Below, piece after piece: positions 31,810 through 56,797 of a DNA stretch of 64,000 bases. The notes under the pieces were generated by a model that was not told the origin of the DNA, did no database searches, and was given only the letters and a program-made list of their open reading frames with translations. Source of the DNA: a bacterium (GTDB lineage: Bacteria > Electryoneota > JAOADG01); contig OY820579.1 in the NCBI GenBank assembly GCA_963681965.1, positions 992,001 through 1,056,000 of the forward strand, written 5' to 3'. The position numbers and the translations under genes were made by a program. Within the stretch, counting starts at the first letter, position 1. Every line of letters begins with the position of its first letter.

Positions 31810-32271
31810 TTAATCCTCACTATTCGCTTGGATTGTAATCGTATCGCCAACCTTGATCGATCCACCGGTTAGCACTTTGGTAAATATTCCTTCGCGTGGC
31901 ATCACACAATCGCCAGCGATTTCGAATATCGCGCATCGCGAATGACACTCTTTCCCGATTTGTGTGACTTGCAATAGACATTTACCAATTTGAATCAGGT
32001 CGCCAATAGCAAGATTGATTAAAGAAATACCCTCAGTGGTGATGTTTTCGGCAAAATTGCCGGGTTCGACCTGCGCTCCCTTTGCCTGCATCGATCGGAT
32101 ACTCTCAATTGCAAGTAAACTAATTTGACGATGTCCCGAGCCGGCATGCGCATCTCCGATAATTCCAAAGTCGGATATCAATTCAGCTTGAGCGACATTC
32201 GATTTCGGAATGCCTTTTACTTGGCTTATCGAGATTGCAACCACTGTACCGGATTGTCGTGTCATGGTCAA
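31810..32271 (-). CDS. MOSC domain protein
   Basis: GIIGDAHAG..RQISLL, PGNFAENITT, VTQIGKECH..C, CVMPREGIF. Confidence 0.93.
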   Translation of the reverse strand: MTMTRQSGTVVAISISQVKGIPKSNVAQAELISDFGIIGDAHAGSGHRQISLLAIESIRSMQAKGAQVEPGNFAENITTEGISLINLAIGDLIQIGKCLLQVTQIGKECHSRCAIFEIAGDCVMPREGIFTKVLTGGSIKVGDTITIQANSED

Positions 32272-34408: not shown

Positions 34409-34429
34409 AACATATCCTGTTTGCGGTTG

Positions 34430-35585: not shown

Positions 35586-36647
35586 GTGAAAGAAATCGCT
35601 AGAGGTGAGAGTTTGTTCGATAAAGTAAGAGACGCATTGCAGACTGGAAAAGTGGTTCGATTTGCCACGATTGTCGCGACTTCAGGATCAACTCCGGCGC
35701 CACAACAATCGCGGATGGCAATCATCTTCGACGATGGATTGAAAGTGTACGGTACCGTCGGTGGTGGTTGCCTCGATGGTGGTATTCTCGGAAGTCTCGG
35801 TGCAGAATCAGATCATCCGCAAGTGACGATTGCGACCTATTATCTAAATGACGATGAAGGTGAATCCGGATTGATGTGCGGCGGTTCGGTCCTAGTGATG
35901 CAAGAGACACCGGTGTCCGGTATGCTGCCATTGTACGAGCAGATCTGCGAAGCGCTTCTTAGTAATACTCCCACACTCCTTTTGACGTACTGGAATCAAC
36001 ACGACCAATACCGTAAAACTCTTCTGGAATTGGATGGATCGATCCGGGGTGGAGATCCAATTGTTAACGAGCTTCAATCGGAATTAACGAAAGCACGTGA
36101 AAGTTGTATCGCCTCCCGTAAAACGATCGTTCAGGAAAGTAGTGAGTGGAAACTTGTATTGGAATTTCTTGATCCCCAACCGAGATTAATTGTTTTCGGT
36201 GGAGGGCATGTCGGAAAAGTCACGACGCAATGCGCGGCATTGGCTGGATTTCGGGTGACAATCGCTGACGATCGGATCTCATTTGCGAATCGCGATCGAT
36301 TTCCCGAAGCCGAAGAAGTCGTCTGTGACGATTTCAGTACGATCGTCGATCGAATGCGCATCGATCAGCACAGCTATATCGTGATCGTTACACGTGGACA
36401 CCGCCACGATGAATTGATACTGGAACAGGTAATAACGCGATCGCCACGATACATTGGAATGATTGGAAGTAAACGGAAGATCTTACTTACTTATGAACAT
36501 CTGAAAGCACGTGGAATTTCCGAATCAGATCTTCAAAAAGTGCACGCACCGATCGGAATGAAAATCAACGCACAATCGCCAGGCGAGATCGGTGTCGCAA
36601 TTGTTGCCGAATTGATTGCTGTTTGGCGCGGTGCATTAGATCATTGA
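35586..36647 (+). CDS. xdhC: XdhC/CoxI family Moco-binding maturation factor
   Basis: GSTP, GTVGGGC, GLMCGG, IVFGGGHV, IVTRGHRHD, YIGMIGSKRK, APIG..I.A.SPGEI. Confidence 0.93.
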   Translation: MKEIARGESLFDKVRDALQTGKVVRFATIVATSGSTPAPQQSRMAIIFDDGLKVYGTVGGGCLDGGILGSLGAESDHPQVTIATYYLNDDEGESGLMCGGSVLVMQETPVSGMLPLYEQICEALLSNTPTLLLTYWNQHDQYRKTLLELDGSIRGGDPIVNELQSELTKARESCIASRKTIVQESSEWKLVLEFLDPQPRLIVFGGGHVGKVTTQCAALAGFRVTIADDRISFANRDRFPEAEEVVCDDFSTIVDRMRIDQHSYIVIVTRGHRHDELILEQVITRSPRYIGMIGSKRKILLTYEHLKARGISESDLQKVHAPIGMKINAQSPGEIGVAIVAELIAVWRGALDH

Positions 36648-37226
36648 AGAAGTTAATCGGTCGAGAGTATCGCGATCGTTAATATTTAAAAGGATCCCCG
36701 GATCGTTCACTTCTATCGGTAAAGTATCGACTCTCGAATTCCGCAATGCAAGATCCAATCTTCCCGCATCCAGCAAGAGTGTTTGAAAGATCGGTGTGGG
36801 GATGATGATCGGGTGACCGGATCGACCTTGATAGACCGGTTTGATCATTTGCTTCGGATTTGATCGTGCAAGTTCGATCAACTTACTGTAAGTCGTTTCT
36901 TGGATGGCAGGATAATCGACCGGGTTGATCAACACACCGCTACAGTCGCTGAATGAATTGCGACCGAGCAATACCGATGAATACATTCCGCGTTCGGGAT
37001 GGGTATTCACGATAATTGTATCCTCAAGGCACCGGTCTTGTGCCCACTGAAAATACTCCTCGGAAACAATAACGCTCATCCGATCGATCCCCGCAGCGCG
37101 AAGTTTCGATCGAATGAGCGTTAAGAAATCAATACCGTTGATCGTCAATGCCAGTTTCGGTGTACCGATTCGTGTTCCGCTTCCGGCGGCTAGAATCAGC
37201 GCTCCGATGCTGGATCGACCACTCAC
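36636..37226 (-). CDS. mocA: Molybdenum cofactor cytidylyltransferase-like (MocA/YgfJ)
   Basis: ILAAGSGTRIG.PK, GMYSS, PVDYP, GRSGHPII, NIND; XDH-family gene context. Confidence 0.8.
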   Translation of the reverse strand: MSGRSSIGALILAAGSGTRIGTPKLALTINGIDFLTLIRSKLRAAGIDRMSVIVSEEYFQWAQDRCLEDTIIVNTHPERGMYSSVLLGRNSFSDCSGVLINPVDYPAIQETTYSKLIELARSNPKQMIKPVYQGRSGHPIIIPTPIFQTLLLDAGRLDLALRNSRVDTLPIEVNDPGILLNINDRDTLDRLTSSMI

Positions 37227-38680
37227 GATAAATTTACTTCGGCGTTGAATGCTGCGATATCGGCATCAACAGCCGTTACCGCATTGACGATACGTTCACG
37301 CCAATACTCCTGATGCCACTGCTCGTTCAATTCTTCAGACGTCTTACCCTGCTGTTCGATCCAAGTGTAATACTTCAAATTGTGAATAGCTTTTCGGTCG
37401 TAGTAAGATAGCTCTTTGAAGAAATCGATCCGCTGATGCAATAATGATGCGGCATGATCCTGTGCTGCCGCGACGGGTGTATAGCTTCCGAGTTCGGTTG
37501 TCAGTTCCGGCAGGCGCGAGCGATACATATCGGCAGAATCGGTAAAAACCGTGAAGATGAAATCGTTTTCATCCATTTCGTAATAGCGTGCCGTCTTGAT
37601 TGCTGCAAGCAGATTGCAGATACTGGAAATTCCCAGCAACGACAAGCGATCCAACGAAGAATCGTCAATTCCAAGTTTTGTCAGATAGGGTTTCGCAACA
37701 GGTTCGTTGAAGAGGCGCAGAATTCGCATGCAATCTTCATCGTCGATGGCAGCGATACCGTCGGTATTTCTGACATTGTGAACCCACGGAATATGCTTGT
37801 CGCCGATTCCTTCGATCCGATGACCACCAAAGCCGTTCATCAATAACGTTGGACATTGCAAAGCTTCGGTCGCGATAATTTTGACATCGCCGAATTGATG
37901 TTTCAGATAGTCGCCGGCAGCGATCGTCCCTGCAGAACCCGTTGCCGAGATGTATGCCGCCAGTCGCGAACGATCCGCACTCAGGGTTCGGTACACTTCG
38001 TCGATTGCCGGACCTGTGACGTTATAATGAAACATCGGATTGCCGAATTCGGCAAATTGATTGAAGATCACGTATTGCGGATCGTCTTTCAATTCGTTGC
38101 ACTTGTCGTAAATCTCTTTCACATTCGATTCACAACCGGGCGTAGCGATGACTTCGGCACCGATTTCGTGCAGCCACTCGAACCGTTCGCGTGACATTTC
38201 CTGCGGAAGAATCGCAATCGGTTGACAACCAAGAAGCGCACAATCGAATGCGCCGCCGCGACAGTAATTACCAGTCGATGGCCAAACGGCTTTCTGATGT
38301 TCCGGATCGAATTCACCGGATACTAACCGTGGCACTAGACAGCCAAATGCCGCACCGACCTTATGTGCGCCGGTTGGAAAATACTTTCCGACGATCCCGA
38401 CAATGCGAGCACGAACGCCGGAGATCGATGACGGAATTTCGACGTAATTGACTTTTCCGAATCGACCGGTCGACAAATCGTTTTTCCAACTGATCCGAAA
38501 TAAATTTAAGGGATTGATATCCCACAAACCCAAACCGGGCAGCTTCGATTGAATCGATTCCGGAATTGTTTCCGGGTGTCGCATCTGATTGAATGTCGGG
38601 ATGACGATTTTACGCTCACGGCACCGTTTAATTGTGCGCTGCCGGACTTCTTGACGATTTTTTTCTGATTGATTTGACAT
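37223..38680 (-). CDS. PLP-dependent fold-type II enzyme, cysteine-synthase-like
   Basis: PTGAHKVGA (PLP Lys), WPSTGNYCRGG, TGSAGT, HRIEGIG. ATG 38680 preferred over 38737, which overlaps ygeW. Confidence 0.88.
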   Translation of the reverse strand: MSNQSEKNRQEVRQRTIKRCRERKIVIPTFNQMRHPETIPESIQSKLPGLGLWDINPLNLFRISWKNDLSTGRFGKVNYVEIPSSISGVRARIVGIVGKYFPTGAHKVGAAFGCLVPRLVSGEFDPEHQKAVWPSTGNYCRGGAFDCALLGCQPIAILPQEMSRERFEWLHEIGAEVIATPGCESNVKEIYDKCNELKDDPQYVIFNQFAEFGNPMFHYNVTGPAIDEVYRTLSADRSRLAAYISATGSAGTIAAGDYLKHQFGDVKIIATEALQCPTLLMNGFGGHRIEGIGDKHIPWVHNVRNTDGIAAIDDEDCMRILRLFNEPVAKPYLTKLGIDDSSLDRLSLLGISSICNLLAAIKTARYYEMDENDFIFTVFTDSADMYRSRLPELTTELGSYTPVAAAQDHAASLLHQRIDFFKELSYYDRKAIHNLKYYTWIEQQGKTSEELNEQWHQEYWRERIVNAVTAVDADIAAFNAEVNLS

Positions 38681-38693
38681 TTTTTTATCTCGA

Positions 38694-39878
38694 TCAACGT
38701 TGATGGTTGCGTTGGATGATCTGGTCGATCGCTGCAACCGGATTGGCTTTACGGGTCAGGAAAATCATGGCGGCAATTACGAACGGTTTGAATCCAGCTT
38801 CGCGATAGGTATCGAACTTGTAGCGATCAAACACCGTTTGCGCAACTTCGCCATGTTCGCAACTGACTCCGGAAATGTCCGCGGGGAGGCAATGCATATA
38901 CAACGCTTTCCTATTTTTCGTGGCAGCCATTTTCGATTCGTCGCATTCCCACGACTGGTATTTGGCATTGTTCGCGAGACACTCTTTTTCCAATTCTTTC
39001 AATCCCTGTTGGTCGCGATTCTTCAATAATTCGGTGCGACGAACCATCACTTGGAACGGTGCCCACGATTTTGGATAGACAACATCGGCACCTTCGAAAG
39101 CCGCTTCCATCCGATCAGCGACGGTGAACGATCCACCGGATGTGGTGGCATTCTTTTTAGCGATGTCGACAATTTCCGGCAACAGATCGTAACCGGTGGG
39201 ATAAGCCAGTGTCACATCGGCACCATAGCGCGATAGCAGTGAAATGATTCCTTGGGGAACCGACAACGGTTTTCCGTAGCTGGGCGAGTAAGCCCAAGTC
39301 ATGGCGATTTTCTTGCCCCGAAGCGCTTCCAGCGATCCGAAATATGATTTCAGGTGCAGTAAATCGGCAAGCGATTGTGTTGGGTGATCGTAATCGCATT
39401 GCAGATTTACAATGCTTGGTCGTTGCGGTAATACGCCGTTTTCGAACCCTTCCTGAACTGCGGCGCTCACTTCGCGCATGTAACGATTTCCCTCGCCAAG
39501 GTACATATCGTCGCGGATACCGATCGTTTCCGTCAGAAATGAAATCATATTGGCGGTTTCGCGAACCGTCTCGCCATGGGCGATTTGCGATTTGACTTCG
39601 TCTAAATCGGAGAGTCCCAATCCCAGTAAATTTACCGCAGATGCAAAACTGAAACGGGTGCGCGTCGAATTGTCGCGGAAAATTGAGATCCCGAGTCCAG
39701 TATCGAATACTCGCGCCGATACACCGGTTCGATGCAGTTCTTTCAAGATTTCCGCACACAACATGACTGCTTCGAGTTCCTGATCGGTTTGTTCCCATGT
39801 CAATAGGAAATCGCGATTGTAAAACGACTGTTTCAATTCCCGTAAGCGATTTACTTTAGTTTCAAGATTAGTGGTCAT
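38694..39878 (-). CDS. ygeW: Knotted carbamoyltransferase YgeW
   Basis: FRDNSTRTRFS, HGETVRETANMISF, QCDYDHPTQ, WAYSPSYGKPLSVPQG, YPKSWAP, MHCLPAD. Confidence 0.96.
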   Translation of the reverse strand: MTTNLETKVNRLRELKQSFYNRDFLLTWEQTDQELEAVMLCAEILKELHRTGVSARVFDTGLGISIFRDNSTRTRFSFASAVNLLGLGLSDLDEVKSQIAHGETVRETANMISFLTETIGIRDDMYLGEGNRYMREVSAAVQEGFENGVLPQRPSIVNLQCDYDHPTQSLADLLHLKSYFGSLEALRGKKIAMTWAYSPSYGKPLSVPQGIISLLSRYGADVTLAYPTGYDLLPEIVDIAKKNATTSGGSFTVADRMEAAFEGADVVYPKSWAPFQVMVRRTELLKNRDQQGLKELEKECLANNAKYQSWECDESKMAATKNRKALYMHCLPADISGVSCEHGEVAQTVFDRYKFDTYREAGFKPFVIAAMIFLTRKANPVAAIDQIIQRNHQR

Positions 39879-39896
39879 ACACTATTCTCCATTAGG

Positions 39897-40376
39897 TTAT
39901 TTAATTAGATCGTTTGTTTGATAAAATGGTGATGCCGCTTCGATTGCATCGACAATCTGTTGATAGCCGGTACAACGGCAGAGATTTGCCGAAATGGCTT
40001 TCCGGATTTCCGGTCGCGTCGGTTGCGGGTGCTCGGACAAAAATGCGTGGGCAGTCAGCACCATTCCGGGGATGCAGTATCCGCATTGGATCGCTCCCGC
40101 TTGGATAAATGCTGTCTGCAGGGGATGGAGAGCACCATCTTCACGAGTCATTCCTTCGATAGTGAGCACCGATTTGTCAACGATGTCGCGAACTTTGAGG
40201 ATACATGCCTTCTTCGGTTTACCGTCGATCAAGATGGTGCAGGTACCGCAGAACCCTTCGCCGCATCCGTTTTTCGTGCCAGTTAATCTGAGTTCTTCGC
40301 GAAGAAATTCGAGCAGTGACTGGTCTAGTTGCGCTTCATTTAACAAGATCGACTGGCGATTAATCTGCGTGAACAT
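39897..40376 (-). CDS. 2x[2Fe-2S] subunit of molybdenum hydroxylase (CoxS-type)
   Basis: GTKNGCGEGFCGTC...AC; QCGYCIPG...NLCRCTGY. Confidence 0.93.
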   Translation of the reverse strand: MFTQINRQSILLNEAQLDQSLLEFLREELRLTGTKNGCGEGFCGTCTILIDGKPKKACILKVRDIVDKSVLTIEGMTREDGALHPLQTAFIQAGAIQCGYCIPGMVLTAHAFLSEHPQPTRPEIRKAISANLCRCTGYQQIVDAIEAASPFYQTNDLIK

Positions 40377-42657
40377 GCGACACCTCCTCTTTCAGAATGG
40401 GTTGCGCTTGTTCGATCGTAATCGGCGATGAAAAATATCGTTTTCCTGTGGCGTGATAAATCGCATTGGCAATCGCTGGAGCCATCAGTTCATTTGCCGG
40501 TTCGCCAATTCCTTTTGCGCCCGAAGGCGAGAGGGGATCGTTATTTTCAATCACAATTGCCGTTATCTCGGGAACATCGGTAGCACGTGGAATGCGATAT
40601 GTATTATAATTCAACGTCGAAATTTTGCCATCCTTCATCTTCACCTGTTCGTGCAAACCGTAGCCGATACCCATCGCGACACCGCCATAGAATTGCCCCA
40701 AAAGAGAATCGGGTTTGATCGCGCGACCGATATCGTGTGCCGCAACGGCATTGAGCAGTTTCACTTTTCCAGTGCGACGGTTTACTGTTAATTCGACTGC
40801 CTGACAGCCGTAGACCCAAGTGAAGTAAGCGTTGCCCTGTCCGTTCTCCTCATTCCAACTGACGCGAGGCGCTTTGAACACACCCATGGCAAAGGGAAAT
40901 TCCTGTGCCTTTTGCATCGCAGAAATTGCGTTTTCAAATGATATCGATTCGTGCGACGTTGCGGAAATCAGTTGACCATTTTCGAAACGAATTGAGTCGG
41001 GGGTGCAATTCAGTTGCGTTGCAACGACGGTAGCGATTTTCTGTTTCAATTCGCGAGCGGCGTTTACGATCGCTCCGCCACCCATCAGCGTACCGCGCGA
41101 TGCTACGGTTGTTCCGCTGTCGGGAATGGTGGATGTGTTCGGACGGCGATAGCGAATCCGGTCGAGCGAGATCCCTAATTCAGTCGCAAGCAAAGTAACA
41201 AACACCGATTCGGCACCTTGACCATTTTCGTGAATACCGACTTCGAGAACGACCGAGCCGTCGAATTGTACATTGATGATCGCCGCACAGAAGTCAGTGC
41301 CTTCGGCGCCAAGACTCATTCCCCGATAACTCATCGCGAGTCCGATGCCATACAATTCGTCGGATTCTGATTCACCTAATGAGCATCGTTTGATTTTATT
41401 GTCGTAGTCGGATTGCTTTATAACCGCATCAAGCGCTTGTTCCAAGCTGACCGTGTGGGCATCGAGTTTCTGTCCGGTGACGGTTACGCTGTTTTGACGA
41501 ACCATGTTCAAACGGCGGAATTCGATTGGGTCGATATTGAGTTTCTCGGCGGCAATTTCAACCAATTGTTCGATCGCAAAGTTAATTTGCGGCGAGCCGA
41601 AACCGCGCATCGCCCCGGTAAAGACATTATTGGTATATACCCCGTACGTATCGCAGTGGACATGCTCCACCTCATACGGTCCGCAACACTGAACGGTAGA
41701 GCGCCACGTGACCCACGGTGTTACCGAACAATATGCGCCGCCATCGGCAACAATCCGGCATTGCACCGCTTTGATCTTTCCCGCTTCTGACAATCCCATT
41801 TTGTAGTGAATACGATAGGGGTGTCGTTTATAGCTTTCGCGGATCGACCAATCGCGGGCATAGGTCATTTTCACCGGCTTACCGCAAAGCTTTGCTGCTA
41901 ATGCCGCACGGGCGCAGACCACTGCAGCAGTATCGTCTTTACCACCGAAGCCGCCACCCATCACTGTTCCAATTACTTCGACATCGGCTAATTGGACGCC
42001 TAATGTCGACGCGACAAAACGGCGGGTACTGAACGGATGCTGCATACTGCCATAGACTTCAATCACACCATCTGTGCGCGGAACGCAAACAGCTGATTCC
42101 GGTTCAAGATAGGCATGTTCGATCGTTTGAGTCTGGAAATCGCGCTCGATGATCAAGTCGGATTCGGAAAATCCCTCCGCAATATCGCCACGTCGAACAC
42201 GATGTTCGTTAATAATATTCGAGCAGGATTCTTCATGGACGAGTGGAGCGCCGGGAAGAAGCGCTTCTTCCGGATCGAATACTGCCGGGATATCTTCCGC
42301 TTCGATAGTAACTAATTTTGCCGCATCGATCGCTTGTTGCCGTGTGTTTGCAATAACAATCGCAATGACATCGCCGTGATACCGGATTTTCGTATCGGCA
42401 AGTATCCGGAGATCTTTGCGGATTTGCCCGAAATTGACACTGCCGGGGATGTCGGAAGCGGTCAAGACTTTAACCACTCCCGGTGCTTGTCGAGCAGTAC
42501 CGGTTTCGATGTGATGGATAATTGCATGCACGTGATCCGAGTAAACCGGCACGGCATGGAGCATTTCCGGAAACTTCAGATCGTCGGCATACTGCGCGCT
42601 TCCAGTCACTTTCGCGACGGCATCGTTGCGCCAACCGGGAGCGTTTAAATGTTGCAT
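40360..42657 (-). CDS. Xanthine dehydrogenase-family molybdopterin-binding subunit (second, CoxL/XdhD-type)
   Basis: KVTG..YADD, HAYLEPE, SMQHP, GGGFGGKDD, GAMRGFG, VASRGT, GAKGIGEP. Confidence 0.92.
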   Translation of the reverse strand: MQHLNAPGWRNDAVAKVTGSAQYADDLKFPEMLHAVPVYSDHVHAIIHHIETGTARQAPGVVKVLTASDIPGSVNFGQIRKDLRILADTKIRYHGDVIAIVIANTRQQAIDAAKLVTIEAEDIPAVFDPEEALLPGAPLVHEESCSNIINEHRVRRGDIAEGFSESDLIIERDFQTQTIEHAYLEPESAVCVPRTDGVIEVYGSMQHPFSTRRFVASTLGVQLADVEVIGTVMGGGFGGKDDTAAVVCARAALAAKLCGKPVKMTYARDWSIRESYKRHPYRIHYKMGLSEAGKIKAVQCRIVADGGAYCSVTPWVTWRSTVQCCGPYEVEHVHCDTYGVYTNNVFTGAMRGFGSPQINFAIEQLVEIAAEKLNIDPIEFRRLNMVRQNSVTVTGQKLDAHTVSLEQALDAVIKQSDYDNKIKRCSLGESESDELYGIGLAMSYRGMSLGAEGTDFCAAIINVQFDGSVVLEVGIHENGQGAESVFVTLLATELGISLDRIRYRRPNTSTIPDSGTTVASRGTLMGGGAIVNAARELKQKIATVVATQLNCTPDSIRFENGQLISATSHESISFENAISAMQKAQEFPFAMGVFKAPRVSWNEENGQGNAYFTWVYGCQAVELTVNRRTGKVKLLNAVAAHDIGRAIKPDSLLGQFYGGVAMGIGYGLHEQVKMKDGKISTLNYNTYRIPRATDVPEITAIVIENNDPLSPSGAKGIGEPANELMAPAIANAIYHATGKRYFSSPITIEQAQPILKEEVSHVHAD

Positions 42658-43994
42658 AAAATTGCCCCTTCCGGTTCATTTTTTGTGAACTGAAAATTCT
42701 CAATAACCGGTGTTCCCTGAACAAATACATAGGGAAAATTGAGTGTTGACATGAATCCGGGATAAGTTTCATACACACTCATCAGCGACGAAACGACTTG
42801 TTTCCGTTCTCCGTGCAGATCGATCACTGTCAAATCGGCATCGCTTCCGATTGCGATTGTCCCTTTTTGCGGGTACAATTGCAGCACTCGCGCTGGATTC
42901 TCGGACAAATGTCGCGCCATTTTCGGTAGCGACGATTCTTCGGCACCGAATAGTACGTACGCCAAATGCGGAAGCGCTCCGATCCCGGCAATTCCCTTCG
43001 GAGTTTTTCGTACATCATCGGGAAAAGCGCTTTTTCCGACTTTCGAAAATGCGCAATGATCGGTGGCAAATAAATCGATCTGCCCCATGCCCGCGCGAGC
43101 AGCCATGTTACTTACGTTCCGTTTGGGTCGCAGTGGCGGCGAGCAGAGCCAGCGATACCCTTGATCGGAATCTTGCAACATCCGGTCATCGAGAAACAAA
43201 TAATGCGGTGCAGTCTCGCAAGTGATCCGGCAGGTTTCTTTCGCAGTCAATATCCGATCAACTGTACGAGCACAAGAGACGTGGACGATATGAACTGTAG
43301 CGTCATACTTCTCCGCCAATTCAATAATCGCTTCGACTGCGGCTAGCTCGACTACTTCCGGTCGTGTGTAAGCATGGGTAATTGGCTTCGACCAGTCCCA
43401 TTCTTGTAATGTCGAAATTGTCTGTAAAGAGGCTTCGTCTTCGCAATGAAACAGAAATGTGATCGGTTGGTTACGAAATCGTTCCATGATATTACCGATC
43501 GTTTCGTAATCGATATACAGTCCGGCTTCGCGATAGGTGGTATAAAATTTGAAGCTGCGAAATCCGGAATCGATCAGATGCTCACAGACGCTCATCGTCT
43601 CTTCGTCGAACCGTGTCGGTGTAAGATGCCAACCGATTGAGCAGTAGGAATGACGAACCGCTTTATCGATGGCAGATTGAATCGCAGAACTAATCGGCTG
43701 TTCGGGAGATTGAGTAATGAAACTCCAGAGTGTGGTAATACCGTTGCGGACGGCAACTTCCGATCCCGAAGCGTAACTATCGGCAAGTGGAATACCGCCA
43801 ATTACATCGTCAAGATGAACGTGAAGATCGATCATTCCGGGGAGAATATATTTACCGGTCAGATCGATTATCGGATCGGTGGTATCTATCGGCGTGGTTT
43901 CGATTGCTGCGATTTTTCCATCGGCGATAAGCAGATCCGATTGAATCAATCCAGAAGCGGTAACCAACGTTCCATTTTGCAACCACCGTTTCAT
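42645..43994 (-). CDS. hydA: Dihydropyrimidinase/hydantoinase (HydA/HyuA-like)
   Basis: LPGMIDLHVH, SFKFY, FHCE, HIVHVS, ETAPHYL, CSPPLR, ATDHC, GSDADL. Confidence 0.85.
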   Translation of the reverse strand: MKRWLQNGTLVTASGLIQSDLLIADGKIAAIETTPIDTTDPIIDLTGKYILPGMIDLHVHLDDVIGGIPLADSYASGSEVAVRNGITTLWSFITQSPEQPISSAIQSAIDKAVRHSYCSIGWHLTPTRFDEETMSVCEHLIDSGFRSFKFYTTYREAGLYIDYETIGNIMERFRNQPITFLFHCEDEASLQTISTLQEWDWSKPITHAYTRPEVVELAAVEAIIELAEKYDATVHIVHVSCARTVDRILTAKETCRITCETAPHYLFLDDRMLQDSDQGYRWLCSPPLRPKRNVSNMAARAGMGQIDLFATDHCAFSKVGKSAFPDDVRKTPKGIAGIGALPHLAYVLFGAEESSLPKMARHLSENPARVLQLYPQKGTIAIGSDADLTVIDLHGERKQVVSSLMSVYETYPGFMSTLNFPYVFVQGTPVIENFQFTKNEPEGAILCNI

Positions 43995-45229: not shown

Positions 45230-45235
45230 TTCGTT

Positions 45236-46453: not shown

Positions 46454-46459
46454 TTTCGC

Positions 46460-47806
46460 TTAAAAGCGTTCCCACAATCGACTTGCCGCTTCACTCGATT
46501 TCGCCGCGACCTCCACTTCGTCGATGGGGATAGTAATACGTTTGTCGTCCATCAGGATGCGACCATTGACAATCGTCGTATTCACTGGAGCATTTGCGAT
46601 GCCGAACACGAGATGCCCCATCAGTGTCTCATTTGTCAAAGGTGTCGGAGTACAATAGTCGACCAAAATGATGTCGGCAGGTGCTCCTTCGTGGATTGTA
46701 CCGATCGGCAGATCCCACAGTCGGGATGCGATTTTACGATTATTTTCGAACAGTGTTTTTACGACTTCGACAAATCCTACCGAGGGGTTGCGATGCGAAA
46801 GATGCTGCAACCACAATGCCGTTCGCAGCTCTTCCGGCATTCGCACGGTCATGGCGTCGCTTCCCAGCCCGACGATGATTCCGGCTTGAGATAAAGCGAT
46901 GATGTCGGCAGCGCCTACGGCATTGTTCATATTCGATTGCGGATTGTGAACAACGATCGTGTTGGTTTCCGCGAGCAATTCGCGTTCGCGATCATCGATG
47001 TGAACGCAGTGGGCGGCAATAGAATTGCTACCAAGAATACCGGCATGATACAAGCGTTCGATTACGCGTTGTTTGTTCGCCTGAAGCGATTGTTCCTGAT
47101 CGGCAAGGTCTTCGGCGACGTGTATATGAAAACCAGTGGCAAGCGAGTTACCGATGGCAGACGCTTCCGCCAGCGTTTCGTCACCGATCGTGAAAGATGC
47201 ATGAAGACCGAACAATCCCCGTAGATAAGGATTATTGGATTTCTGACAAGCAGCGATGAATTCGGCATTTTCAGAAAGTCCTTCGCGAGCGATCGTTTCA
47301 CCGTCGCGATCGGATACTTCGTAACAGAGACATCCGCGAATACCGAATTCTGTCAGTGCTTGCGCGATTTTATTCAGTGAGCCGGTTATGGCATGTGGAC
47401 TGGCATGATGATCGATAAATGTCGTGGTTCCGCTTCGAATCGCATCGAACAGAATCGCTGCGGTAGAATAGTACACGTCGTCGAGTGTGAGTGCCTTATC
47501 GAGTCGCCACCACAAATTATTTAATACTTCGAGAAAGTTCTTCGACGGGTTGGCTTTTCCAAAACCGCGCGCAAAGGTGCTATAAAAATGCATGTGTGCA
47601 TTGATGTAGCCTGGCATTACTAATTTATGTTTGGCATCGATAGTCCGATCGTATGTGCCGGTAAAACTTGCATCCGGTCCGATTCGACTCACGACACCGT
47701 TTTCGATCAGAAGCGAATGTCCTTCCAGTACCGACCAGTCGCCGCCAAGCGGTAGGATTGTTCCATTTCGAATTAATATCGATTGATTAAGATCATGTGA
47801 AGACAT
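46460..47806 (-). CDS. ssnA: Putative aminohydrolase SsnA
   Basis: MPGYINAHMHFYS..ARG, LWWRLD, IDHHASP, CYEVSDRDG, GLHASFT, HIHVAE, HNPQSNMNNAVG. Confidence 0.93.
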   Translation of the reverse strand: MSSHDLNQSILIRNGTILPLGGDWSVLEGHSLLIENGVVSRIGPDASFTGTYDRTIDAKHKLVMPGYINAHMHFYSTFARGFGKANPSKNFLEVLNNLWWRLDKALTLDDVYYSTAAILFDAIRSGTTTFIDHHASPHAITGSLNKIAQALTEFGIRGCLCYEVSDRDGETIAREGLSENAEFIAACQKSNNPYLRGLFGLHASFTIGDETLAEASAIGNSLATGFHIHVAEDLADQEQSLQANKQRVIERLYHAGILGSNSIAAHCVHIDDRERELLAETNTIVVHNPQSNMNNAVGAADIIALSQAGIIVGLGSDAMTVRMPEELRTALWLQHLSHRNPSVGFVEVVKTLFENNRKIASRLWDLPIGTIHEGAPADIILVDYCTPTPLTNETLMGHLVFGIANAPVNTTIVNGRILMDDKRITIPIDEVEVAAKSSEAASRLWERF

Positions 47807-50302
47807 TTAATTTTCCGATAACATTTCGTGTTCCTCAGGCGAACGATTGCGCATCGACAACGCACCGGAGAAACATTTTTGAACACAGAATGAGCAACCG
47901 ACACACCGGGATGGATCGGTAACCGGCGTTAATTTATCTGAAAGCATGATTGCCAGATAGGGACACCGAACGCAATTTCCACAGTGTTGACATAAATTCT
48001 CGTCGACGCTGGAAATTTTCTTTTGTGCCGGTATTTTCTCAAAGGATAAAATTGGATCGGGTAACGCCGAACCGATATACTCCGCCACCGATTTATAACC
48101 ATTTTCTTGAAGTAGATAGCTAAATCCGGAGTTCAACTCGTCGATAATTTCCACTCCGTACTTCATCGCTACCGAGCAGAATTGAACCGTCTTTGCACCC
48201 AATGCCAGAAAATGCGAAGCTGCCAAATAATCCATTGGACCGCCATTTCCCGAAATGGTCAATCCAATGTTCGATGCTTTTGCCAGTGTCAGGAAACTGA
48301 TTGGTGCAACACCGGCACCGGACATGCCGACGATATACCCAACGAATCCACCATTTTCCGAAGGTCGGAACGACAGCGCGGGAAAACTGTTCGCGAGCGT
48401 GACACCGGCTTTCTTGTGAGGATACTTAGCCAGCACTTCGCGGATCGCAATCAAGATCGGTTGGATCGCGGTTACTGCACCAGTCAGTTTAAATAATTTT
48501 GGTACTTCCGGATCGGAGATCGACATTACCCAATCGATAATTGTCGCAGTCAATTCCGCATCCTGCGAAACAATATCTCCCTTCGTACCGTCGCCACCTT
48601 GCGGACAAGAAAGCGAATATTCCACTGCCATCGCTCCGGCTGCTTCCAATTTGCGAGTATTGGATTGCCAGACTTTTTTATCGGACTCGTCATTGCCGGT
48701 AACGGGACCGCCAGTTGAACCGATCGTCAAGCGGTCGGGGAACAACTTAACCAGTTGTTCGATTTCCCGGCAGACCCGGTCGAGAGCATGTCCGGAAACA
48801 TTATCGCAATTTGCAAAGGTTTGCTTATCGAGCACGAACATATACTCACTGGGAATATGGATCGGTAAATTGTCGAATGCCGTTTTCATCACACCGCCAG
48901 CCCAACCGGCGCGATAGGCACGGATCATCTGATCCAATCCATCGGTCGGCGGTGCGGCTGAAAGCAGGAATGGCGAATTTATTTTCCGTCCGAAGAAATC
49001 AGTTTCCAGATTAACTGGAATTAGATTTTTGCCGAGAAGCTTCACGGTGCTCTTGATGTTTTTCTCGAGCTGAGGTTCCGGTAACGATTGGCAGAAAGCA
49101 TCGACGGCGATCGCAATATTTTTTCCGGAAGCCACTGCTTCAACTACAGTCGTCGGACCGTTGATTAAATCACCGGCATAATAGATTCCGGGATGTCCTT
49201 TCCGCTCGATCGCCGATTTAGCACCAATAGCGATAATGATTAGATCGGTTGTCAACGTTTGTTGAATGGCATTTTCCAGTGGCACGATTTTCCGAGGGTG
49301 AAATTTCTCCCCTTCCGGTAGATCGACGGGTTGAAGCATCACAGTTCGTCGATTGCCTGCTTCCCTTACTTCGGTAATTCGTGACCGACCGATAATTTCG
49401 ATTCCAGCTTCGTGAATCCACTTCCATTCGACATCAGTTAACGGCATTTCCGATAATTTTTCCAATGCGATCATTGTGACTTTGGTAGCACCGTTCCGGC
49501 TGGCAGTCACGGCGCAATCGGTAGCAATTGCACCACCACCGATCACAATCACATTTTTGTAACGAGTGGAATAGAATTCCGGATTTTCGAGGTATTGTTT
49601 CCAATCTGTCGTTAGATTTTCGCCCGGAATACCGAGTGTAAAGGGCACATTCAAACCGGTTGCGACGATTACCGCTTGGTAGCCCTGATCAAGAACTTCA
49701 ACAGGATCAGTAATCAACGAGTGGTACTTAATCTCGATATTGCCAAGTTCTGTAACAAGTTCGATATCGTCTTGGAGTACGAAATGATTCAATCGGAATT
49801 CCGGAATCAAGTTGCACATGCCGCCGGCTTTCGGTGCTTGCTCGAAAATGGTAATGGCATAGCCCAACTGCGCCAATACCGATGCAGCACCCAGACCAGC
49901 GGGACCGGCGCCGACAATCGCGATCCGCCGATTATTCGGAGTCGGTGTTGTAAATACCGGTGCGTGTTCCGATTCACGTGCCCGAGCAATAATTGCCGAT
50001 TGAATTGAGGGAATCTCAATTGGGCGATCGAAAATTCGTAATGCGCACGCTTTCATACAGTGATAATCGGGACAAACCGAACCGCAAATGCCACCAAGGG
50101 GATTACTGCCCAGAATGATCGACGATGCGCGCTGAAAGTCGGTATCTGCGCCAAGTTTTGCTGCCATGATAAAATCGGCAGGTGAACAATCCGCTGGACA
50201 GGCGGTTTTGCATGGTTTCTCTAAACAGAATTCGCACTTGGCGATCTCGCGTTTAAGTTGAGCATCAGTCAGAAATAACGGATATCTTTTCATACATTCC
50301 AC
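47807..50302 (-). CDS. Single-chain dihydropyrimidine-dehydrogenase-like flavo-Fe-S oxidoreductase (PreT-PreA fusion)
   Basis: N-terminal CEFC..PC..ACP / CGSVCP..HC..AC, GAGPAG, IGGGAIA; FMN barrel LSAAPPT, KT, SLSCPQG, NGG; C-terminal CQHCGNCVRCP and CVGCSFCVQKC. ATG 50293 is a possible start. Confidence 0.88.
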   Translation of the reverse strand: MECMKRYPLFLTDAQLKREIAKCEFCLEKPCKTACPADCSPADFIMAAKLGADTDFQRASSIILGSNPLGGICGSVCPDYHCMKACALRIFDRPIEIPSIQSAIIARARESEHAPVFTTPTPNNRRIAIVGAGPAGLGAASVLAQLGYAITIFEQAPKAGGMCNLIPEFRLNHFVLQDDIELVTELGNIEIKYHSLITDPVEVLDQGYQAVIVATGLNVPFTLGIPGENLTTDWKQYLENPEFYSTRYKNVIVIGGGAIATDCAVTASRNGATKVTMIALEKLSEMPLTDVEWKWIHEAGIEIIGRSRITEVREAGNRRTVMLQPVDLPEGEKFHPRKIVPLENAIQQTLTTDLIIIAIGAKSAIERKGHPGIYYAGDLINGPTTVVEAVASGKNIAIAVDAFCQSLPEPQLEKNIKSTVKLLGKNLIPVNLETDFFGRKINSPFLLSAAPPTDGLDQMIRAYRAGWAGGVMKTAFDNLPIHIPSEYMFVLDKQTFANCDNVSGHALDRVCREIEQLVKLFPDRLTIGSTGGPVTGNDESDKKVWQSNTRKLEAAGAMAVEYSLSCPQGGDGTKGDIVSQDAELTATIIDWVMSISDPEVPKLFKLTGAVTAIQPILIAIREVLAKYPHKKAGVTLANSFPALSFRPSENGGFVGYIVGMSGAGVAPISFLTLAKASNIGLTISGNGGPMDYLAASHFLALGAKTVQFCSVAMKYGVEIIDELNSGFSYLLQENGYKSVAEYIGSALPDPILSFEKIPAQKKISSVDENLCQHCGNCVRCPYLAIMLSDKLTPVTDPSRCVGCSFCVQKCFSGALSMRNRSPEEHEMLSEN

Positions 50303-50308
50303 AAAATT

Positions 50309-52645
50309 CTACTTACGATTAATCGACTTTTTGGCATGTTCATGAGCCAATAAGACGGCATTAGGCGTTGCTGGCAATGATAACTGAATCGGAACACTGT
50401 GATTGACCGCTGCCGATAGCGCATCTTTAATTGCAAAGAAAACGGCTTCGCCGTAAATCAATGGTGGTTCACCGATAGCTTTGCTTTGGTAGACACTGGC
50501 ATGCTCGCGATCGCAATCTACCATATCCACTATAAACGTTTCCGGTAGATCTTTGATCGTGGGGATTTTATAGGTAGACGGCGATACCGCTAGATATTCA
50601 CCGGAGACCGGATGAAAAGCGAGTTCTTCGAACGTACACCAACCCATGCCTTGAATGAACGCGCCTTCAATTTGACCGCGATCAATTTCCGGATTAAGCG
50701 ATCGTCCGGTTTCGTGAACGATGTGTGTTGATACGATGCGGAAGGTTCCATCCATCAATTTGAGTTCAACCACTGCTAATGCACAACCGAATACAAAATA
50801 AGCGAACGGCGAGCCATGGAATGCGACTCGATCGAATACTAGGTTCGGGGTTCGATAATAACCGTGTGCACCCAACGCAATTCGATTCATGTAGGCATAG
50901 TGAACGACTTCCGGAAAAGTTAAGATGTGCTCGGGAGCAGTTCGGGAGTAAATCGTATCGGCTTCGAAAACGATTTCATCCGGTGAAACTTCAACATCCC
51001 ATTTCTCACGATAGAGCAAAATCGCTTGATCAGTCAGTCGGTCTCGGAGAATCTTCGCGGCGATTCGTGCCGCGTTCCCATTGATATCCGACCCGGAAGA
51101 GGCTGCCGTTGGCGATGCATTGCCTACGCGTTTCGTATTGGCAGTTTCAACGCGAATTCGCGAAAGCGAAACACCTAATTCGCGTGCAACCACTTGCGCC
51201 ACCTTCGTATTGAGTTCTTGACCCATTTCAATACCGCCGTGGCTCAAGGAAATCGAACCATCGGTATAGATCCAAACCAGTGCCGAACCCTGATTCAAAA
51301 ACGTCGCAGTAAATGAGATCCCAAATTTGGTTGGCATTACGCCAATACCGCGCTTAACGTCATGGTGCAATAGGTTGAAGTGATTTACTTCGGTTGTCAC
51401 TCGATCGTATTCGGCATCAGTACGCAATCGCTCCAATAATTCGACGGTTGCCGCCTCGTGAACTTGCTGACCGAAGGGAGTAGTCTGACCTTCCGAGTAA
51501 GAATTCATAATCCGGATCGTGAATGGATCAATCTTCAGCATTTCTGCAATGCGAGTAATTGCGCTCTCAATCGCAAAAATGCCTTGAGGTGCGCCAAAGC
51601 CACGCATCGCTGTATTGGGTGGAAGATTGGTGCGGCAAGCCCGACCGGTGATTTTTACGTTTGGGATGAAATAGCAGTTGTCGGCGTGGAGAACAGCACG
51701 ATCGAGAATTGCCAGCGATAAATCACAGTAGGCACCACCATTCGCATTCAATTCGACTTCGTACGCTGTGATCTTGCCACTCTTGGTAAAACCGATGCGG
51801 TAGCGGATATCGAAGGGGTGTCGTTTCCCGGTCCAGCGCATATCTTCGTGCCGGGTCAATATGAGTTCGGTCGGTTTTCCGGTCACTGCCGCTGCCAGAG
51901 CTGTCAAACACGACCAAAGCACCGGAGTGCGTTCTTTACCGCCAAACCCTCCACCAAGACGCGGTACTTCGATTGTGATATCCTTGCTATGTTTACCTAA
52001 GACCTTCGCACAAATCTCCTGTACTTCCGAAGTACTTTGTGTCGCCGATTGTAAAACGATCTCGCCGTTTTCACCCGGGATCGCAATACAGCGTTGCGTT
52101 TCTAGATAGAAATGTTCCTGTCCGGCAAGATGCAATTCGTCTTCCAGAATATGATCCGCTGCAGCAAATCCTTCTTCGATATTGCCGCGAAGAACATGGC
52201 GTGCGGGAACATACAATAAGTCCCGTTCGATTGCTTCGGCAGTGGTCAGAACCGGATGTAAGTTTTCATACTCGACGTTAACCTTACTTGCCGCGAGTTC
52301 GGCGATGCGAGCGGTCTCTGCCACAACCAGTGCGATCGGTTGTCCGATATATTGAACTTCATCGACTGGAAAAAGCGGTTCATCGAGTAGTACATGCCCG
52401 ATCATATTTTCGCCGGGAATGTCGCGGTGCGTGAGTATTGCAATCACACCCGGAATTGATTGGGCTGCGGATGCATCGATCGAGCGGATTTTCGCATGAG
52501 CATACTGACTTGGAACTGGTTTGAGAGCCAAGCATTGTGGAGATGGTAACATCTCACCGATGAAGCGCGACTGTCCGGTAACGTGAAGATTTCCACTCAA
52601 GTGCAGCGGTGTATTCGATTGCTTGGACGTCGGAGGCGTTCTCAT
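50309..52645 (-). CDS. xdhB: Xanthine dehydrogenase molybdopterin subunit (Rhodobacter/Pseudomonas/eukaryote-like)
   Basis: GQEHFYLETQ, RLGGGFGGKE, NTAMRGFGAPQG, KFGISFT, GIEMGQ, SPTAASSGSD, YKIP, SKAIGEPP. Confidence 0.93.
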   Translation of the reverse strand: MRTPPTSKQSNTPLHLSGNLHVTGQSRFIGEMLPSPQCLALKPVPSQYAHAKIRSIDASAAQSIPGVIAILTHRDIPGENMIGHVLLDEPLFPVDEVQYIGQPIALVVAETARIAELAASKVNVEYENLHPVLTTAEAIERDLLYVPARHVLRGNIEEGFAAADHILEDELHLAGQEHFYLETQRCIAIPGENGEIVLQSATQSTSEVQEICAKVLGKHSKDITIEVPRLGGGFGGKERTPVLWSCLTALAAAVTGKPTELILTRHEDMRWTGKRHPFDIRYRIGFTKSGKITAYEVELNANGGAYCDLSLAILDRAVLHADNCYFIPNVKITGRACRTNLPPNTAMRGFGAPQGIFAIESAITRIAEMLKIDPFTIRIMNSYSEGQTTPFGQQVHEAATVELLERLRTDAEYDRVTTEVNHFNLLHHDVKRGIGVMPTKFGISFTATFLNQGSALVWIYTDGSISLSHGGIEMGQELNTKVAQVVARELGVSLSRIRVETANTKRVGNASPTAASSGSDINGNAARIAAKILRDRLTDQAILLYREKWDVEVSPDEIVFEADTIYSRTAPEHILTFPEVVHYAYMNRIALGAHGYYRTPNLVFDRVAFHGSPFAYFVFGCALAVVELKLMDGTFRIVSTHIVHETGRSLNPEIDRGQIEGAFIQGMGWCTFEELAFHPVSGEYLAVSPSTYKIPTIKDLPETFIVDMVDCDREHASVYQSKAIGEPPLIYGEAVFFAIKDALSAAVNHSVPIQLSLPATPNAVLLAHEHAKKSINRK

Positions 52646-54138
52646 TTCGACTCCTTCCCGGAAAGAACCGCTTCCTGAAGTTTAGTAAGGTGTTGTACTA
52701 CGTGATTGCGGATCAATATTGAGCGGTACTCGGCACTCCCGCGGATGTCGGTCATTGGCGTGAAGTCATCGATGGCAAGTTGAGCGCATTGATCGATTAC
52801 CTCGGTTGTCAAATTTTTACCTACCAGAAATTCCGAACTCGGGAGCGACAAGCGGGGAATTTTATCTACGCCTCCAAATGCGAATCGACTGGATATAATC
52901 GACGATCCTTCGATTTGAATGGAACAGGCAGAATTTACCGAAGAGATATCGACTGCGATACGCTTGCTTGATTTAATGAAATTCGAAAATCCGGTTTTGA
53001 TCGGAAGAATGATCGCGGAAATAATCTCCAGTAATTGCAGCGCAGTTTTGCGATAATCGAGGAAGAATTGATCGATCTTCACGATCCGAATCCCGTTCGA
53101 AGAACGTAGCTCCAATTTTGCATCGAGCGCCAGTAGCGCTACCGTTCCATCGGCGATGGGTGAAGCGTGAGCGACATTTCCTGCCAGCGTCGCCACATTT
53201 CGGATTTGTGAAGAACCAACCCACGTCGCGGCTGTGACCAGCATCGGGAAATGTGTTTGCACGAATGTGTTATCGATAATTTCCCGATAGGTTGATGTGG
53301 CACCAATCCGAATCTCGGTTCCGTTTCCGGTGATCCTTTTTAATTCCGGGATTTTGTCGATATCGATAAAACATGCGGGAAATCGTCGTTGAACATTCCG
53401 TTCGACGTAGATATCAGTTCCACCGGCGATGAGCCGGAATTCATCCGGTTTCGAAAATGTATCGAGTAGTTTAAATAAATCATTAATTGTTTCTGGAGTA
53501 TGGTAATCGGTCGTCGAACGCTGTTCGTGATTAGAGGTAGGTTTTGAACCGATATCAATATGATTATCCAATAGAAAAGATTTTGCCGCATCACACGATC
53601 TCGGATAGAGATTTTCTTTTCCATCGAAAGTGGAAAATGTTTCAGCTAATATCTCGGCAGCTGCGAGAATCGACCGATAACCGGTACAGCGACACAAATT
53701 GCCTTCCAGTGCAGTCTTCAGTTCCTCAACTGTCGATGTCTCGTGGGTCGTGAAATGGCAAAACAACGTCATAATAATACCGGGAGTACAGTATCCGCAT
53801 TGAGTTCCATGTTGTTCGAGTAGAATCTGCTGTATTGGATGGAGTTGAGTTCCGGCAGCGAGTCCTTCGACGGTTAGGATATGCTTTTGATGCATCCTTG
53901 CTGTGGGAAATAGGCACGAATTAATCGCGCGATAGCGAAGTACTCCAGTCGAATCAATTTCGCCTACTGCTATTGCACATGCGCCACAATCGCCTTCCGA
54001 ACAAACTTCTTTTGTTCCAGTTAAACGCAATTTGTCCCGGAGTAATTCCAACGACGTTTCATCGGGATTCACATCGCAACTGACCACTCGGTCGTTGAGC
54101 ATGAAAGTGATTGTCTGTTGAGTAATTGAATCGTTCAT
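52642..54138 (-). CDS. xdhA: Xanthine dehydrogenase small subunit (2x[2Fe-2S] + FAD)
   Basis: GTKEVCSEGDCGAC, QCGYCTPG, GNLCRCTGY, IAGGTD, QIRNVATLAGN..ASPIAD, DIRGSAEYR; ATG 54138 with AGGA upstream. Confidence 0.93.
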   Translation of the reverse strand: MNDSITQQTITFMLNDRVVSCDVNPDETSLELLRDKLRLTGTKEVCSEGDCGACAIAVGEIDSTGVLRYRAINSCLFPTARMHQKHILTVEGLAAGTQLHPIQQILLEQHGTQCGYCTPGIIMTLFCHFTTHETSTVEELKTALEGNLCRCTGYRSILAAAEILAETFSTFDGKENLYPRSCDAAKSFLLDNHIDIGSKPTSNHEQRSTTDYHTPETINDLFKLLDTFSKPDEFRLIAGGTDIYVERNVQRRFPACFIDIDKIPELKRITGNGTEIRIGATSTYREIIDNTFVQTHFPMLVTAATWVGSSQIRNVATLAGNVAHASPIADGTVALLALDAKLELRSSNGIRIVKIDQFFLDYRKTALQLLEIISAIILPIKTGFSNFIKSSKRIAVDISSVNSACSIQIEGSSIISSRFAFGGVDKIPRLSLPSSEFLVGKNLTTEVIDQCAQLAIDDFTPMTDIRGSAEYRSILIRNHVVQHLTKLQEAVLSGKESK

Positions 54139-54202
54139 TGCTATTGTCCGATTCCTGAAAAAAGTAAATAAATAGAAAGAATTCAATTCGAATAGGTATC
54201 AC

Positions 54203-54305
54203 AATTACACTCCGAGGAATCAATCTCGAAGTCGGATGGATCGCGGCTCATCGATGTCCATGATTAGGGTAACGCGGTAAGTTCCGTTGAGAGGCATCCG
54301 TAATT
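54203..54305 (-). ncRNA. Candidate structured 5' leader (possible riboswitch) of the purine-catabolism operon
   Basis: Minus-strand nested stems AAUUAC/GUAAUU, GGAUG/CAUCC and ACUUCGAG/CUCGGAGU form a three-way junction. No known family recognised. Confidence 0.4.
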
Positions 54306-56790: not shown

Positions 56791-56797
56791 GTGAGTT

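Follow-up and report, generated by a model that had tools for sequence, protein, structure and literature searches.

A candidate selenium-independent version of the reductive urate pathway in environmental bacteria, with alternative reductases and terminal lyases

Can a bacterium that lacks both the reductase YgfK and the lyase DpaL (YgeX) break down urate by the reductive route? The question is raised by an operon of an Electryoneota bacterium (GenBank assembly GCA_963681965.1, contig OY820579.1), in which 12 consecutive minus-strand open reading frames (ORFs) run from 36636 to 54186 of the 64,000-nucleotide stretch that we analyzed (forward-strand positions 992,001 to 1,056,000; hereafter the window). 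The reductive urate pathway was solved in 2025 in gut bacteria, according to the available text of Li et al. (PMC12507026) and of Liu et al. (10.1101/2025.04.24.650524), which gives the E. coli cluster as ygeW-ygeX-ygeY-hyuA-yqeA ... mocA-ygfK-ssnA-ygfM-xdhD. A preliminary description of the window had read the operon as a variant of this system in which other enzymes stand in for YgfK and DpaL. We propose that it encodes a selenium-independent environmental version of reductive purine/urate catabolism by way of 2,8-dioxopurine ("yanthine"), a reading to which we give a probability of roughly 0.62. The case is built from observed gene content, family membership, genome-wide absences and co-occurrence patterns, and the substrate suggested for each enzyme is a prediction from these.

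The operon and the route it may encode

The source genome is closed (4.24 Mb, 1 contig) and rated 99.9% complete, and the operon proteins were scored with Pfam and NCBIfam profiles against curated family cut-offs. The ORFs and the profile matches agree with the preliminary description on twelve contiguous genes in the order xdhA, xdhB, a dihydropyrimidine dehydrogenase (DPD)-like gene, ssnA, ygeY, a thrC-like gene, a hydantoinase gene, the molybdenum (Mo) and 2Fe-2S subunits of a second Mo enzyme, ygeW, a cysK-like gene and mocA, with spacing that ranges from a 17-nt overlap up to an 18-nt gap. Of the span it had assigned to them, 36636..54305, the start holds, and the end is off by about 120 nt, lying upstream of the longest xdhA-like ORF.

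The identification of a variant reductive urate pathway with its hydrolytic core intact is borne out by three proteins that exceed their curated cut-offs. These are SsnA, the predicted pyrimidine-ring-opening amidohydrolase (46460..47806; NF005540, 529 bits against a cut-off of 444; TIGR03314, 505 against 455.5); YgeY, an M20 hydrolase predicted to act on ureido groups (45236..46453; NF009555, 548 against 321); and YgeW, a knotted carbamoyltransferase (38694..39878; NF005538, 660 against 453). YgeY and YgeW score from 536 to 548 and from 627 to 660 bits, respectively, always above the cut-offs, and identity to the E. coli enzymes is 33% for SsnA, 53% for YgeY and 61% for YgeW. The core may be completed by a cyclic amidohydrolase of the D-hydantoinase/dihydropyrimidinase type (42645..43994), a candidate HyuA analogue that is 27% identical to E. 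coli HyuA and scores 273 bits with TIGR02033 (cut-off, 393).

The claim that ygfK and dpaL are absent holds for the whole genome. The YgfK profile TIGR03315 has no match over its cut-off, its best (274 bits) being a GltD-like gene elsewhere, and the only match of the DpaL profile TIGR01747, at 24 bits, falls on the ThrC-like gene of the operon itself; canonical copies elsewhere in the genome, which the preliminary description had named as the observation that would speak against it, were not found. Among the further absences that it listed, those of YqeB (TIGR03309) and YqeC (TIGR03172) likewise extend to the whole genome, as does that of a purine or urate permease of the NCS2 family, for which E. 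coli XanQ and UacT, as tblastn queries, gave no match. Carbamate kinase and selD are missing from the window and present elsewhere. The carbamate kinase (NF009007, 308 bits against 266) lies 2.2 Mb from the operon; it is the only one in the genome (locus L010, G000:C1:3260049-3263972), no urate gene adjoins it, and its neighbors are a protein of 444 aa, in which CobW/P-loop is only weakly matched, and a transposase of the IS1595 family. The selD gene, with one in-frame TGA, lies far outside the window (L011, G000:C1:4177383-4178309) and is of the selenocysteine type; the organism uses selenium, although YqeB and YqeC, which mark selenium-dependent Mo hydroxylases, are missing. The absence of these two suggests that both Mo enzymes of the operon are presumably of the sulfur rather than the selenium type.

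Going by homology and gene context, the XdhA/XdhB pair would oxidize hypoxanthine and xanthine to urate, and the second Mo enzyme would reduce urate to 2,8-dioxopurine. The DPD-like protein, a fusion of the PreT-PreA type, would reduce the uracil-like ring in the place of YgfK, probably with NAD(P)H, after which SsnA would open the pyrimidine ring and the hydantoinase the hydantoin ring. YgeW would then take off one ureido group by phosphorolysis as carbamoyl phosphate, from which the distant carbamate kinase could form ATP, and YgeY would hydrolyze the other to yield 2,3-diaminopropionate. In the last step, the ThrC-like enzyme would convert diaminopropionate to pyruvate and ammonia in the place of DpaL/YgeX; we picture it as a descendant of threonine synthase in which Asp and Thr now occupy the former phosphate site.

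The two Mo enzymes and several of the questions that follow were approached through a set of 80 related loci, the best 80 of 535 confirmed relatives fetched with the ThrC-like protein as the query, which were searched with all window proteins and with the E. coli pathway proteins; many are short contigs, and full flanks are available in 35. The relatives that carry the ThrC-like cluster are environmental metagenome-assembled genomes (MAGs), in line with the suggestion that the lineage is not a gut one. A close homologue (at least 55% identity) of the second Mo subunit (40360..42657; 765 aa), which pairs with a 2Fe-2S subunit (39897..40376; both assigned with Pfam and NCBIfam profiles), is found in 35 of the 80 loci, and a Mo subunit of whatever kind is encoded in 54. 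Only 10 of the loci have a close xdhB, so that the XdhAB pair is accessory. Hence, the second, conserved Mo enzyme is taken as the putative urate reductase/2,8-dioxopurine dehydrogenase, an analogue of XdhD, and XdhAB as a feeder, probably a true xanthine/hypoxanthine dehydrogenase that supplies urate. The latter pair comprises an XdhA-like small subunit with two 2Fe-2S clusters and FAD (52642..54186; Fer2, Fer2_2, FAD_binding_5 and CO_deh_flav_C; TIGR02963, 412 bits against 467) and an XdhB-like molybdopterin subunit (50309..52645; TIGR02965, 818 against 849.5), which carries GGGFGGKE and GEPP motifs that we take to mark the Glu positions of the xanthine oxidoreductase type. The genome also has a third Mo-hydroxylase locus, outside the window (G000:C1:4148853-4152555), in the order FAD-FeS-Mo and 32% identical to E. 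coli XdhA; about 8 kb from it lies another SsnA-like amidohydrolase (120 bits; G000:C1:4160423-4161631).

The two PLP-dependent enzymes

The operon includes two pyridoxal phosphate (PLP)-dependent enzymes. The ThrC-like one (43991..45229) has an N-terminal Cys4 ribbon and is the only TIGR00260 match of the genome, at 188 bits over the threonine synthase cut-off of 167. It is likewise the sole over-cut-off match in four of five other carrier genomes, the fifth, which is verrucomicrobial, having two more thrC genes. Three solved threonine synthases share, in alignment, the motifs NPxR(I/L)EGQKT and PVGNAGN; in the ThrC-like family, that Arg is replaced by Thr210 and the first Asn by Asp238, invariantly in 79 of 79 members, and the four N-terminal cysteines are also invariant in all 79. 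The replaced Arg and Asn are, we assume, the residues that hold the substrate phosphate in threonine synthase. One of the two extra verrucomicrobial genes retains the Arg/Asn signature.

The distribution of this family is complementary to that of DpaL. The set from the window's phylum comprised 79 genomes, and in 21 of them an SsnA-like match reaches 267 bits or more. The ThrC-like gene is present in 20 of these 21, the exception being a genome only 56% complete, and a twenty-second genome has it together with a split SsnA; DpaL over the cut-off occurs in 4 of the 79, none of which has SsnA. A second phylum, to which a Holophaga MAG belongs, was sampled with 101 genomes, 15 of which have SsnA at an E value of 1e-80 or better. 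Thirteen of the 15 have the ThrC-like gene, always with the Asp signature (13/13), and the two that do not (G141 and G168) are exactly the two with DpaL over the cut-off. DpaL over the cut-off is found in none of the five other carrier genomes, and a DpaL-like gene lies inside the flanks of only 1 of the 80 loci. The ThrC-like gene directly follows ygeY in 45 of the 80 loci and is itself directly followed by the hydantoinase gene in 50. It is chiefly this alternation with DpaL that leads us to assign the DpaL step to the ThrC-like enzyme, which is thus likely to be a diaminopropionate ammonia-lyase replacing DpaL/YgeX. A sequence search of the PDB found no functionally closer structure for either PLP enzyme. 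The pathway genes of G141 (contig C4, L106 and L107) fall into two sub-clusters about 50 kb apart, one with SsnA, the CysK-like gene and HyuA and the other with XdhAB, YgeY, YgeW, the DPD fusion and DpaL.

The second PLP enzyme is a long CysK-like protein (37223..38680; 485 aa as in the database copy, the longest ORF extending to 38737) that scores 109 bits with TIGR01139 (cut-off, 351). Its structural model, with a mean local confidence (pLDDT) of 84, has a cysteine-synthase/beta-cyanoalanine-synthase core, with target-normalized template modeling (TM) scores of 0.72 to 0.82 in Foldseek at 21 to 28% identity. It has an invariant Asp-Lys-His at a position where canonical CysK presumably has Ala-Gly-Phe. 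All 15 SsnA genomes of the second phylum encode the protein, both DpaL carriers included, as do 14 of 21 genomes of the window's phylum that carry ThrC-like and, among loci that were chosen through ThrC-like, 31 of the 35 with full flanks. Of the seven remaining carriers in the window's phylum, three were inspected; two have a near-canonical CysK (320 to 338 bits against cut-offs of 344 to 351) beside the ThrC-like gene, and the third has merely a 31% tblastn match in the same slot. In 44 of 54 cases the CysK-like gene comes immediately after ygeW, and its other neighbors include ssnA downstream (13/54), mocA (10/54) and xdhC (1/54). A decaying cluster of the window's phylum (G057:C16:762791-776188) retains an intact ThrC-like gene, but its CysK-like gene is broken in two, with a TGA, and its SsnA falls into two adjacent pieces.

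The preliminary description had cast both PLP genes as replacements of DpaL. This stands for the ThrC-like gene, which alternates with DpaL, and fails for the CysK-like gene, which co-occurs with both lyases. The retention of the latter in the two genomes that have DpaL and lack ThrC-like (G141 and G168) implies a role independent of ThrC-like. Hence, the CysK-like protein is, in our reading, an additional conserved member of the pathway rather than a DpaL substitute, with a predicted step that is absent from the published scheme. Our best guess is that it most likely carries out a beta-replacement or beta-elimination on a beta-substituted alanine intermediate, either albizziin or diaminopropionate. 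In the ESM Atlas it falls only in generic "PLP-dependent enzyme" clusters, and nothing relevant to albizziin and cysteine synthase appeared among the literature matches listed. A bolder version of the proposal would hold that a lineage of threonine synthase became a diaminopropionate (or ureidoalanine) lyase when an Asp/Thr pocket took over from its phosphate pocket, that this lyase now completes the reductive urate pathway in hundreds of environmental species and that the CysK-like enzyme catalyzes a step missing from the published pathway, for example, the elimination or replacement of urea from albizziin or the conversion of purine-derived diaminopropionate to cysteine. We offer this tentatively, thinking it a good deal easier to be wrong than right; if true, it would amount to an undescribed branch of urate catabolism in these bacteria.

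Could the two PLP enzymes instead replace DpaL jointly, either as an obligatory two-step unit (a racemase or beta-replacement reaction followed by a lyase) or as a hetero-complex? The two genes are kept together in most loci, as the full-flank count indicates, and a CysK-type gene adjoins ThrC-like even in distant relatives. The R/D stereochemistry of the pathway intermediates is open in print, to judge from the available part of a commentary by Percudani (PMC12990295), which would leave room for such a step. Against this stand the two DpaL-bearing genomes that keep the CysK-like gene without ThrC-like, and the in vitro finding with the E. coli enzymes that YgeY and YgeX suffice after albizziin, as given in the portion of PMC12507026 available. 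A joint unit therefore seems to us unlikely, if still the best of the alternatives.

The surroundings of the CysK-like gene might point to a different function. In the window it is followed by mocA (36636..37226; a MocA-like molybdenum cofactor cytidylyltransferase with NTP_transf_3; TIGR03310, 88 bits against 186), with which an XdhC-family maturation factor on the plus strand converges at a 12-nt overlap (35586..36647; XdhC_C and XdhC_CoxI; NF045664, 281 against 350). Beyond it, on the minus strand (31810..35413), are the molybdenum cofactor genes moaA, a moaC/moaB fusion, moeA and a gene for a MOSC-domain protein. Rather than a catabolic step, the CysK-like enzyme might serve maturation of the Mo cofactor or sulfur supply, for example by donating sulfide or persulfide toward the sulfido ligand of selenium-independent Mo hydroxylases, or the salvage of cysteine or serine from the C3 skeleton. 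Its adjacency to mocA and xdhC in some loci, the absence of YqeB and YqeC, and the lack in the genome of any other CysK/CysM-type gene over the cut-off and of an evident cysE (best match, 43 bits) agree with this, as does the fact that some CysK relatives are H2S-producing enzymes by the titles of their PDB entries. Its commonest neighbors are, however, pathway genes, ygeW upstream and ssnA downstream, and we know of no fold-type II enzyme that sulfurates the Mo cofactor. We regard such a role as improbable.

The reductase step and the combination of modules

The DPD fusion (47807..50302; 831 aa; Fer4_20 and Pyr_redox_2) joins a PreT-like half for FeS clusters, FAD and NAD(P)H to a PreA-like FMN barrel with two 4Fe-4S clusters, as found by domain search. 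It has the architecture of the PreT/PreA dihydropyrimidine dehydrogenase and misses the PreA equivalog cut-off (NF006183, 179 bits against 335). Its barrel retains an SLSCPQ loop, which we take to be the site of the catalytic Cys, and reaches only 20.1 bits with PF01180, under the gathering cut-off of 27, so that a PF01180-based survey would miss it. BLAST alignment with E. coli YgfK is confined to the GltD-like part, and residues 1 to 450 of YgfK have no Pfam domain. Among the 80 loci, the DPD fusion is present in 29 and full-length YgfK in 20, with neither in 31 and both in none; the corresponding counts for the 35 full-flank loci are 19, 8, 8 and 0. The two behave as alternatives. Searches of the genome, that with the YgfK profile among them, found no second 2,8-dioxopurine reductase. 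Hence, the DPD fusion is the probable 2,8-dioxopurine reductase substituting for YgfK.

The preliminary description had taken the exchange of reductases as part of an undescribed system. Replacement of YgfK by a PydA homologue, UacX, which was identified through PF01180 in Clostridioides difficile, is already in print, as is replacement by an F420 enzyme in Chloroflexota, both in the available text of PMC12507026. The swap seen here is a subtype of the former, and solely the fused NAD(P)H-type form with its divergent barrel is new. At three loci of Myxococcota MAGs (L041, L044 and L083), the N-terminal part of YgfK is a separate 674-aa protein with a 4Fe-4S region that adjoins the CysK-like gene, and an XdhC-like domain fused to a MobA-like transferase adjoins ThrC-like; an IS91-type transposase follows in L041. 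Myxococcota loci that had looked like an independent context with the PLP pair alone were rejected as such, since they proved to be pieces of a cluster of this kind, with a transposase alongside.

The same domain architecture admits a reading in which the DPD fusion, the dihydropyrimidinase-like gene and the M20 hydrolase make up a reductive uracil/thymine pathway that merely sits beside purine genes. M20 enzymes can be beta-ureidopropionases, and the best model for the hydantoinase belongs to the dihydropyrimidinase/D-hydantoinase family. The M20 gene, however, exceeds the YgeY-specific cut-offs, and those for PreA and D-hydantoinase are missed; moreover, clusters that are otherwise identical differ in whether they have the DPD fusion or YgfK, the fusion gene immediately precedes ssnA, and searches of the genome found no other reductase for 2,8-dioxopurine. 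A pyrimidine pathway is accordingly very hard to sustain.

Hardest of all to credit is a chance presence in the operon of the housekeeping threonine and cysteine synthases: the two genes are the sole TIGR00260 and cysK/M-type matches of the genome and ThrC-like passes the curated cut-off, but homoserine dehydrogenase (PF00742) has no match in the genome, though present in 14 of 14 control genomes, so that ThrC-like cannot be the housekeeping enzyme here, many phyla keep the genes at this place in the cluster, residues conserved in ThrC are replaced, cysE is not evident, and the verrucomicrobial carrier has its two further thrC genes. This candidate was rejected also on the E. coli queries, of which ThrC finds nothing and ThrA and ThrB only a piece of an aspartokinase and a weak 44-bit GHMP-kinase hit (ThrB). 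The organism may depend on external threonine and cysteine or make them by other routes.

A joint exclusivity of ygfK and dpaL with the whole set of DPD, ThrC-like and CysK-like genes, as the preliminary description had envisaged, is seen for YgfK and the DPD fusion and not for the set. The PLP genes occur with either reductase: YgfK stands with both of them in Holophagaceae loci, and the DPD fusion with ThrC-like in the window operon, while in G141 and G180 the DPD fusion adjoins a DpaL homologue. The reductase swap and the lyase swap are thus independent modules that are freely combined.

Several points weigh against our proposal. All substrates are assigned by homology and gene context; in particular, the choice of the Mo enzyme that acts on urate is a guess from conservation, and the enzyme chosen has no FAD subunit gene beside it. 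The hydantoinase scores below its family cut-off and is missing from 15 of the 35 full-flank loci, and the XanQ/UacT searches leave the genome without a purine or urate permease. ThrC-like still exceeds the curated threonine-synthase cut-off, and the literature consulted gave no confirmation that the residues it has lost bind phosphate. The complementarity of DpaL and ThrC-like rests on two possibly related genomes (G141 and G168) and on the canonical E. coli-type clusters, and three genomes carry both kinds of lyase: G180 has an Asp-signature ThrC-like gene together with a partial DpaL adjoining SsnA, and in the ThrC-like carriers G044 and G045, DpaL-like genes that score under the cut-off lie on other contigs. 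One locus of the 80 (L065) holds the two kinds together.

Taking these findings together, the operon represents a genuine variant, and a widespread one, of a known pathway; neither PLP gene was found in the pathway papers. A term search found no "threonine," "cysteine synthase," Ignavibacteria, Verrucomicrobia or Acidobacteria in the text of either primary paper, the supplements, which might name such neighbors, lying outside its scope; nor was there a paper on a PLP-enzyme swap among the literature matches listed for ygeW, ssnA or ygeY with threonine or cysteine synthase. If our reading is correct, a selenium-independent reductive urate pathway has spread through many environmental phyla, assembled from interchangeable modules, with YgfK or the DPD fusion as the reductase and DpaL or the ThrC-like enzyme as the terminal lyase. 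The operon yields two testable enzyme assignments and draws attention to a conserved CysK-like protein whose predicted step the published scheme lacks. The lyase swap would also be hidden from neighborhood surveys that count any PF00291 protein as YgeX, as the survey in PMC12507026 does according to its available text. As ThrC-like is the sole gene that scores as threonine synthase here and in four of the five other carriers, automatic reconstructions would wrongly infer threonine synthesis.

Flanking genes and comparison with known systems

Divergent from the operon, on the plus strand (54586..57463), are a HisKA_3 sensor kinase and a NarL-type response regulator, which together are a candidate regulator of the operon; the kinase is matched in 0 of the 80 related loci and the response regulator in 1. 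The first 500 residues of the kinase (54586-56100) have no Pfam match. An Rfam search of the whole window at gathering thresholds gave no match and thus no purine or Mo cofactor riboswitch, and scans for promoters (23 against 27.5 expected) and terminators (22 against 23.4 expected) were at chance. Elsewhere in the window lie a 2938-aa protein with Kre9/KNH-like Ig domains and a type IX secretion sorting tail (18284-27100) and, adjoining it, a 1283-aa protein with PcRGLX-like N-terminal domains (27156-31007).

Each PLP enzyme can be set beside a known family. With threonine synthase (2d1f, 2zsj, 1uim and 6cgq), the ThrC-like protein shares the fold-type II PLP fold, the PLP lysine motif, the STGN loop and a C-terminal TGxGLKD; it differs in its Cys4 ribbon, in the Asp and Thr that replace Asn and Arg, and in its setting, which is that of purine-catabolic operons in a genome without the homoserine pathway. 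The CysK-like protein retains the PLP lysine, the STGN loop and the HxIxGIG motif of CysK, the CBS core and beta-cyanoalanine synthase, but departs from them in conserved helical N- and C-terminal extensions that bring it to 485 aa, in its low TIGR01139 score and in the lack of a CysE partner.

At the level of the whole system, the closest parallel is the uricolytic cluster of E. coli, with which the operon has in common SsnA, YgeY and YgeW orthologues, a Mo hydroxylase, MocA, an XdhC-type factor and an amidohydrolase of the hydantoinase type; the route from urate to diaminopropionate is probably the same in the two. Unlike that cluster, the operon has the DPD fusion in lieu of YgfK and the ThrC-like enzyme in lieu of DpaL/YgeX, and no YgfM FAD subunit stands beside its core Mo enzyme. 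There is also no YqeB, YqeC or urate permease, carbamate kinase is unlinked, and the long CysK-like protein and a second Mo enzyme, of the xanthine dehydrogenase type, are added. The UacX variant of C. difficile likewise has an FMN/FeS enzyme of the dihydropyrimidine dehydrogenase type at the reductase step; as described in the available text of PMC12507026, however, UacX is without an FAD domain and is thought to be ferredoxin dependent, whereas the barrel encoded in the window is fused to a PreT-like FAD/NAD(P)H half, and C. difficile retains YgeX and has UacY for YgeW, whereas the operon described here retains YgeW.

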